From Escherichia coli (lineage in GTDB: Bacteria; Pseudomonadota; Gammaproteobacteria; Enterobacterales; Enterobacteriaceae): a stretch of DNA of 64,000 bases. Positions 43,120 through 44,076 of the stretch are shown piece after piece. Below the pieces are notes generated by a model. It made no database searches. It was not told the DNA's origin and saw nothing but the letters and a program-made list of their open reading frames with translations. Numbering within the stretch: position 1 is the stretch's first letter; every line of letters starts with the position of its first letter. The stretch lies in assembly GCF_050920415.1 (NCBI RefSeq), contig NZ_CP169309.1; one strand, 5' to 3'. The translations under genes were made by a program, and so were the position numbers.

Positions 43120-44076
43120 TTAGTACTCGATCCATGGATCACGCTTGCTTTCAGGCAAGGGCTGATCTAATGCCTGCATTTGTTCTGCCGAAAGTCCGGT
43201 ATATCGTTGTATCCATTCAGGATCGGCCCCATTCTGCAACAACAATCGGAGGAGGCTCCGTTCCCCTTCTACTTTCCCTTCTTTCCTCCCCCTCTCCCTT
43301 CCCAACAGCCATCCATCATTATGAATTCGCTCTGCAATTGTCATTATTCGCTCCCTGTGGTGTGGCATTCGCCTGGTAAGTTCGCTGATAAACGCCTTAA
43401 AACGCGCTTCATCGCCAGTCAGTAAAATGTAATTTAACAGCGCAGTTATCTGGCTGTCATTAGCGCACCCTGTAACCAGTAATACTGCCAGTTGATCAAT
43501 AAGCCCCATTAGATCGCGCTGGCGAATATGCTTTTGGATCAACTCCAACAGGGCGACTCTGCGGTGTTGCACAATCTCGTCGTCTGGCACGACAGTGATA
43601 TCCACCAGCGGGAACGCGGCGGTATAAAGCTTCCGTGCGATAGTCGGGTCGGCAAATTCGTCCAGCCAGCACAAAGACCAGGGATAAGGACTACGGCTAC
43701 CGTGATAAAACAGCATCGGGATGACCAGCGGTAGCGGTCGGCGTTTATCATGTTCGATATGGCGCTGCATCACCGCCATGGAATAGCGCATCAGGCGAAA
43801 AGCCATGTGAATATCCTCGCGGCTCTGATGTTCAATCACCACATAGATATAGCCATCGCCTTCGCGGGTCTTTACCGACCATAAAATATCGGAGTGTAGC
43901 GCCCGCAATTTTTCATCGACAAAGCTGGCGGATTCCAGTTTTAAGGTGTCGAGATCGCACAGTTCACGTAAATCTTTAGGTAAGTGAATCTCCATAAAAT
44001 CCCGCGCAGTGTCAGGGTGCGTGAGAAAGGTTTTAAATAATGCATCATGCGGCGTACTGGTCGTGAAGTTTGTCAT
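43120..44076 (-). CDS. rpnD: Rpn-family (YhgA-like, PD-(D/E)xK) recombination-promoting nuclease
   Basis: 318 aa with the typical N-terminus (HDALFKTFL...) of the Rpn/transposase_31 family; locus position equivalent to yjiP/yjiQ. Confidence 0.75.

Follow-up and report, generated by a model that had tools for sequence, protein, structure and literature searches.

The best characterised relative of the gene described here is RpnA (YhgA) of Escherichia coli K-12, for which there is biochemistry, including an intragenic antitoxin (i.e. RpnA_S) and a crystal structure (PDB 7TH0). RpnA is a Mg-dependent, Ca-stimulated DNA endonuclease in vitro (Kingston et al., 2017; PMC5350276). In the same study, the substitutions D11A, D63A, E82A and Q84K abolished all of the RpnA phenotypes, R94A abolished the recombination-promoting activity and D165A, located in the PDDE motif, made the protein hyperactive. 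The rpnD gene of K-12 was repaired as a synthesised gene (i.e. yjiPc) and shown to be active in vivo by Kingston et al. (2015; PMC4498929). Repaired RpnD increased RecA-independent recombination by 4.7-fold, left recA-deficient cells with a viability lowered by 94% and ranked with the earliest inducers of an SOS reporter (PMC5350276). The stop codon goes unmentioned in the 2017 paper, the repair by synthesis being explained in the 2015 paper. That rpnD is a nonsense pseudogene in K-12 and a complete gene in most E. coli is already known, having been in print since 2015 (Kingston et al.).

A mode of control for these proteins was described by Zhong et al. (2023; PMC10400941). In their account the rpn loci are genes-within-genes, a small protein produced from an internal in-frame start (i.e. 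RpnS) blocking the toxic full-length protein (i.e. RpnL). All five K-12 RpnS proteins were detected, RpnD_S by tagging, and the internal start of RpnA, M244, was validated experimentally. An internal transcription start was reported in all of the K-12 rpn genes (PMC10400941), and Ribo-RET peaks have been recorded for all five (bioRxiv 10.1101/520783). The C-terminal domain was found to vary among strains by four-amino-acid repeats lying 8–20 residues after the internal Met, and for RpnC an L form was neutralised only by an S form of equal repeat number (PMC10400941). The small proteins of the A, B and C systems were shown to act as antitoxins, and phage defence was shown for the plasmid-borne RpnP2, not for RpnD (PMC10400941). 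Under the conditions used, neither RpnA nor RpnD was detected in its long form in K-12 (PMC10400941). For RpnD this is expected because of the stop codon in the K-12 gene; RpnA_L was likewise undetected, and expression of the native long forms may therefore be very low.

The window analysed here is a stretch of 64,000 nt from E. coli (contig NZ_CP169309.1). An open reading frame within it was examined by family searches, by alignment with K-12 and by comparison with other complete genomes. The full-length gene and its main domain are as follows.

43120..44076, - strand: rpnD coding sequence (full-length RpnD_L), ATG start, 318 aa plus stop, uninterrupted in the ORF listing
43447..44055, - strand: Transposase_31 / YhgA-like domain, residues 8-210 (Pfam), containing the predicted PD-(D/E)XK nuclease core

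The ORF listing of the window gives 0 internal stops for 43120..44076 on the - strand. The translated protein matched PF04754 (Transposase_31 / YhgA-like) over residues 8-210 with E=2.1e-87, scoring 292 bits (cutoff 21) and covering positions 1-202 of the 203 in the profile. The NCBIfam model TIGR01784 ('Rpn family recombination-promoting nuclease/putative transposase') scored 166.8 bits (cutoff 52.1). The ORF is a member of the Rpn/YhgA-like nuclease family and is a real gene rather than a chance ORF. Its neighbours are yjiR (41466..42878, +), mdtM (44545..45786, +) and then yjiN, and this order (i.e. yjiR-rpnD-mdtM-yjiN) is that of K-12. Positions 41120..49358 of the window are collinear with the yjiS-to-yjiL region of K-12 at 95-97% identity, and the 250 bp upstream of rpnD are nearly identical in the two. 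Due to these neighbours and this collinearity, 43120..44076 was identified as the rpnD position. The same DNA, over 1666 bp, is 100% identical in E. coli MFDS1022581, and there carries the annotation of an intact Rpn gene (WP_000181205.1).

An earlier note on this DNA, made from the letters alone, had described a single uninterrupted Rpn ORF of 318 aa at the position of yjiP/yjiQ, and the ORF listing, Pfam and synteny all agree with that description. The note had also taken the K-12 counterpart to be split or degenerate. This proved correct: in MG1655, rpnD is b4584, formerly yjiP (b4338) plus yjiQ (b4339), at 4568998..4569918 of NC_000913.3, and is a RefSeq pseudogene with TAG at codon 104 (for status and naming see also PMC11551758). 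The pairwise alignment that the note had proposed was performed and found a single frame-breaking lesion in K-12, so that the identical intact K-12 ORF which would have spoken against the claim does not exist. The lesion corresponds to one codon of the window.

43765..43767, - strand: codon 104, CAG (Gln) in the window and TAG in K-12, from nucleotide and protein alignments with NC_000913.3

A single CAG to TAG change at codon 104 makes K-12 rpnD a pseudogene and divides it into yjiP and yjiQ. One MG1655 assembly (i.e. NZ_CP025268.1) matched with a single mismatch and was considered as a possible revertant; this was rejected, as codon 104 has changed from TAG to TAA and is still a stop. The TAA reflects either a further mutation or a difference in sequencing, and the annotation of that assembly retains an 'internal stop' for the gene.

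Residues required by RpnA were mapped from the K-12 protein onto window RpnD. All of D11, D63, E82, Q84 and R94, together with the PDDE motif (164-167), are present, and all are invariant in an 18-sequence alignment that included Citrobacter, Salmonella, Klebsiella and RpnA. The earlier note had concluded, on condition of a broken K-12 gene, that this strain retains a functional copy. Retention of the gene stands, with the catalytic residues kept and the repaired K-12 protein active; that the window allele itself is active is plausible by extrapolation from these relatives. An AlphaFold2 model built with the 18-sequence alignment was of low confidence (mean pLDDT 56.4). In this low-confidence model, three strands are followed by a helix and a strand, an order compatible with a PD-(D/E)XK restriction-endonuclease-like fold, and the C-terminal part is modelled as four helices (238-260, 266-281, 286-293 and 297-302), as compared to a three-helix bundle for RpnA_S. 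A Foldseek search of this low-confidence model against the PDB gave no match at E<=0.001, with marginal matches to unrelated proteins (e.g. Tdp2, E ~0.04). The whole RpnD protein had no match among PDB sequences. PADLOC 2.0 contains no Rpn model, and none of its models matched the RpnD protein.

The C-terminal part of the gene contains the elements of a second, internal reading frame.

43120..43344, - strand: predicted RpnD_S ORF, in-frame, 74 aa (M245 to Y318), presumed antitoxin/oligomerisation domain
43351..43355, - strand: GGGAG resembling a Shine-Dalgarno site, 6 nt upstream of the internal ATG (ACAGGGAGCGAATAATGAC, identical in K-12)
43255..43314, - strand: tetrapeptide ('Gxxx') repeat region, five 12-nt units, residues 255-274
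43431..43460, - strand: candidate internal sigma-70-like promoter, ATGACA-18-TAAATT with TG, ~90 nt upstream of the internal ATG, proposed from the consensus alone

The internal ATG (M245) occupies 43342..43344. M245 of the window aligns with M244 of RpnA, and the sequence M245-T-I-A is invariant in the 18-sequence alignment. At the level of sequence, both the internal in-frame start and the predicted ribosome-binding site are kept in the window allele, the start lying in the interval of ~50-75 codons ahead of the stop that the gene-within-gene model calls for. The candidate promoter is to be read with the outcome of the consensus scan for promoters and terminators, which gave 3 sites as compared to 2.1 expected (i.e. 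chance level). The tetrapeptide repeats begin 10 residues after M245, inside the range of 8-20 given in PMC10400941, and number five as compared to two (i.e. GYIK GEQR) in K-12. Lengths of rpnD orthologues step by 4 aa (306/310/314/318/322), with the gaps falling in the repeat region. Tandem Repeats Finder called no repeat in 43100..44100, the divergence among the 12-nt units being too great; the repeat can be recognised at the protein/codon level only.

Searches with the C-terminal 74 aa were also performed. A phmmer comparison with the RpnA_S crystal structure, 7TH0, gave a weak match (E=0.01) over query residues 17-60. Designed ankyrin repeats outscored 7TH0 and were rejected as a motif coincidence, each matched stretch being worth 5-7 bits. 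These spurious phmmer matches to designed ankyrin-repeat proteins stem from an LLLQNGADP motif (43195..43221, in the region of residues 286-294), which could mislead sequence-based annotation of the RpnS domain. Pfam returned nothing meaningful for the C-terminal 74 aa, and PF27070, which is precomputed for homologues, was not recovered.

The two parts of the gene differ in their divergence from K-12. Over codons 1-244, the window and K-12 rpnD share 95.5% nucleotide identity; of the codons that differ, 19 do so synonymously and 11 non-synonymously. In the aligned part of codons 245-318, identity falls to 82.8%, with 7 synonymous and 16 non-synonymous differences, and it is 80.7% across the C-terminal 50 aligned codons. 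Divergence from K-12 is thus much greater in the C-terminal domain than in the nuclease domain. The window gene has 36 additional in-frame nt (i.e. 12 codons) after codon 256. Whilst the two genes share their locus (yjiR-rpnD-mdtM), family, catalytic residues, internal start and ribosome-binding site, K-12 rpnD has 306 codons, 2 tetrapeptide units and the tail ERERYSWLKS, whereas the window gene has 318 codons, 5 units and a different tail. Given its 12 additional codons and the divergence of its C-terminal domain, the window allele is more than K-12 rpnD with its stop repaired.

The frequency of the K-12 lesion was assessed in 5426 complete E. coli genomes using a 61-mer centred on the codon-104 stop. 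Exact matches to the TAG version were present in 338 genomes; among the matches listed, these were K-12 laboratory derivatives or genomes of K-12 size (e.g. MG1655, MC4100, JM83 and ER1709). The CAG version of the 61-mer matched 4128 of the 5426 genomes as compared to 1276 for the TAG version, and C is therefore the usual base at this position. Fourteen non-K-12 genomes were then sampled, mostly at even steps along the match lists. Intact rpnD was observed at the same locus in 12 of these 14, with a length of 957, 945 or 921 nt (318, 314 or 306 aa, respectively), and codon 104 was CAG in all 13 non-K-12 rpnD genes that were translated. In one wild isolate (i.e. SCAID WND2-2021), the allele is of the short K-12 type but lacks the stop (WP_000181202.1). 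In a large protein collection, the exact window protein was present on 88 contigs (e.g. BDI39058.1 and EGB60907.1), its 90%-identity cluster had 3918 members and a sister 318-aa sequence was present on at least 1000 contigs. The 61-mer counts, sampled genomes and protein clusters together establish that intact rpnD is the common, ordinary state in E. coli and that the copy in this strain is unremarkable.

Alleles with 2, 4 and 5 repeat units were observed among the sampled complete genomes, and more length variants among database proteins. The classes seen were a 2-unit GYIK type with an SWLKS tail, a 4-unit GWLL type and a 5-unit GWLL type with a PWIEY tail. The 5-unit C-terminal type is common as an rpnD allele at the same locus in other strains. 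Two genomes carried damaged genes. In O157:H7 strain Z563, one extra G at approximately nt 803 of the gene frameshifts both the long and the small proteins; in E. coli B (i.e. B-DolR), an IS1 insertion lies directly after codon 255. These two lesions are independent, and each lies inside the tetrapeptide-repeat tract or at its edge. Counting the amber stop of K-12, there are three separate rpnD lesions in three heavily used lineages. Neighbouring genes also varied: in MS1170, 23AR1217 and ES1, rpnD is intact, mdtM is absent and rpnD adjoins yjiN directly, and yjiR is missing from 23AR1217 and present as a fragment in ES1. The conserved block around rpnD therefore has variable boundaries.

The preferred reading, to which we assign a probability of roughly 0.88, is that the window ORF is a normal intact allele of chromosomal E. 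coli rpnD, probably a nuclease gene with a second gene inside it. The anatomy of the window gene (i.e. M245, GGGAG, the repeats and the length series) fits the model of Zhong et al. (2023), as judged from sequence. Nuclease activity of RpnD, translation of RpnD_S and its antitoxin action are what we infer from RpnA, RpnB, RpnC, plasmid Rpn and repaired K-12 RpnD. By this analogy, RpnD_L would, like RpnA, be an endonuclease that cuts DNA in the presence of Mg with little sequence specificity, and on overproduction would be toxic, induce SOS and stimulate RecA-independent recombination. The C-terminal 74 residues would be translated separately as RpnD_S, which may bind RpnD_L through the repeat-containing helix and keep it inactive, in the manner of a gene-within-gene toxin-antitoxin system. 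Repeat number would then decide which S form pairs with which L form, and the biological role of RpnD would probably be anti-phage defence, in line with the defence genes in its neighbourhood (i.e. an Mrr-like enzyme, a type I restriction-modification system and a GmrSD-type enzyme).

Two described systems bear on this scheme from different sides. RpnA of K-12 shares with window RpnD the PF04754 domain, the catalytic residues, the PDDE motif, the internal Met (M244 versus M245) and, going by the low-confidence model, a helical C-terminal domain. Protein identity between the two is 58%, K-12 RpnA is without the extra tetrapeptide units and its tail is shorter; RpnA has been studied biochemically, whereas RpnD is known here from sequence. 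RpnC and RpnP2 show the same kind of difference between strains in how many four-amino-acid repeats are present, in the S domain's first helix, and like rpnD they adjoin defence genes. Matching of S and L forms by repeat number is a property of RpnC and defence a property of plasmid RpnP2, and for the 5-unit RpnD both would apply by analogy.

An intact reading frame could nevertheless be silent, with the long form unexpressed or inactive and only the small C-terminal protein of any importance. Such a state would agree with the findings that neither long form, of RpnA or of RpnD, was detected in K-12 under the conditions used, where all five small forms were detected (PMC10400941), and that basal recombination was unchanged on deletion of rpnA to rpnD (PMC5350276); the repeated loss of rpnD through the K-12 amber stop, the Z563 frameshift and the IS1 of E. 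coli B points in the same direction. A silent gene is harder to reconcile with a conserved nuclease domain in which the essential residues are kept and synonymous differences outnumber non-synonymous ones (19 versus 11 in the N-terminal domain), with the thousands of full-length sequences or with the strong activity of the repaired K-12 protein. We regard this alternative as unlikely.

Database names suggest that rpnD might instead encode the transposase of a mobile element, since the Pfam family is named Transposase_31 and the top-scoring NCBIfam model was PRK09956 ('ISNCY family transposase'). The score for PRK09956 was 403 bits, below its 583-bit cutoff, and a search of the flanks of rpnD found no terminal inverted repeats or target duplications. 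The segment around codon 104 occurs once per genome (median) and at a fixed chromosomal site in the sampled genomes, with 2 places on plasmids. Zhong et al. reported rpn genes to be without inverted repeats and target-site duplications (PMC10400941), and RpnA is a nuclease for which no transposase-type activity was shown (PMC5350276). A transposase is accordingly a very improbable identity for this protein. Equally remote is the recombination of another rpn paralogue (i.e. rpnA, B, C or E) into the rpnD site, for which the NCBIfam RpnA equivalog match (E=1e-116) and the ~83% identity of the C-terminal quarter to K-12 rpnD might be cited, given that this equivalog score (389 bits) is below the 583-bit cutoff, that identity to K-12 RpnA, the sole paralogue compared, is 58% in protein, that codons 1-244 and the 250 bp upstream follow K-12 rpnD so closely and that the 5-unit C-terminal type is itself a common rpnD allele at this locus elsewhere.

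The reading of window rpnD as a normal intact allele can be extended, tentatively and with considerable doubt, to a joint proposal. Each C-terminal class of rpnD might set its own L/S pairing, the intact gene might be a toxin-antitoxin that defends against phage at the border of the immigration control region, and the repeat tract might be a mutational hotspot. A hotspot of this kind, if true, would account for both diversification and recurrent loss of rpnD. The allele classes and the two lesions were observed; the remainder is speculation built on Zhong et al. (2023).

As K-12 is atypical for rpnD, conclusions on RpnD drawn from K-12 are not transferable to wild isolates, and the labels 'putative transposase' and 'ISNCY family transposase' are misleading for this gene. 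The window allele is a natural 5-repeat variant, usable for examining the rule of repeat-number specificity and phage defence by a chromosomal RpnD. The exact allele is already in RefSeq (WP_000181205.1) and carries little weight as a discovery. Mildly new, and descriptive, are the three C-terminal allele classes and the location of the O157:H7 and E. coli B lesions, both in the repeat tract.

The surrounding region was also compared with K-12. The rpnD gene is at the edge of a hypervariable restriction/defence island, the immigration control region, which spans 30820..41028 on the yjiR side of rpnD and differs from that of K-12. In the window it contains an Mrr_cat enzyme of 388 aa (PADLOC PDC-S02, E=2e-206), the type I restriction-modification genes hsdM, hsdS and hsdR (32050..38372), symE (~38422..38884) and a 697-aa protein with GmrSD_N, GmrSD_C and DUF5655 domains (38935..41028; PADLOC 'Orf5', E=4e-223). 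In K-12 the same region carries mcrBC, yjiT, yjiV, hsdRMS and mrr. For 38935..41028, the RefSeq annotation of MFDS1022581 has a 387-aa 'GmrSD' CDS plus a partial DUF262 pseudogene, although one continuous 697-aa ORF is present in both strains. The split recurs in the annotation of strain 23AR1217 and is probably artefactual. The opposite edge of the defence island holds a toxin-antitoxin remnant, annotated in MFDS1022581 between yjiA and the Mrr-like gene (window 30205..30630) as a gene for the antitoxin BrnA together with the truncated remains of the toxin BrnT.

The intergenic interval between rpnD and yjiR (42972..43100) contains REP-like palindromic sequence (e.g. gccggatgcggcgtgaacgccttatcc) and is poorly conserved between the window and K-12. 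Due to this REP-like sequence, the 1666-bp query matched a median of 27 places per genome.

The window and MFDS1022581 are 99.997% identical over 35 kb, with one mismatch, at window position 24363. Relative to MFDS1022581, a 1332-bp insertion at 57957..59288 interrupts the inverse-autotransporter gene iatD, in which IAT_beta, Big_1 and Invasin_D3 domains are encoded by the upstream part (54342..57959). The insert is bounded by imperfect inverted repeats (TAGACTGGCCCC... / ...GGGGCAAATCCAC) and contains an ORF for an rve integrase of 301 aa (58371..59276), and four bases (TAAC) are duplicated at its junctions. From its appearance, the insert is presumably IS2.
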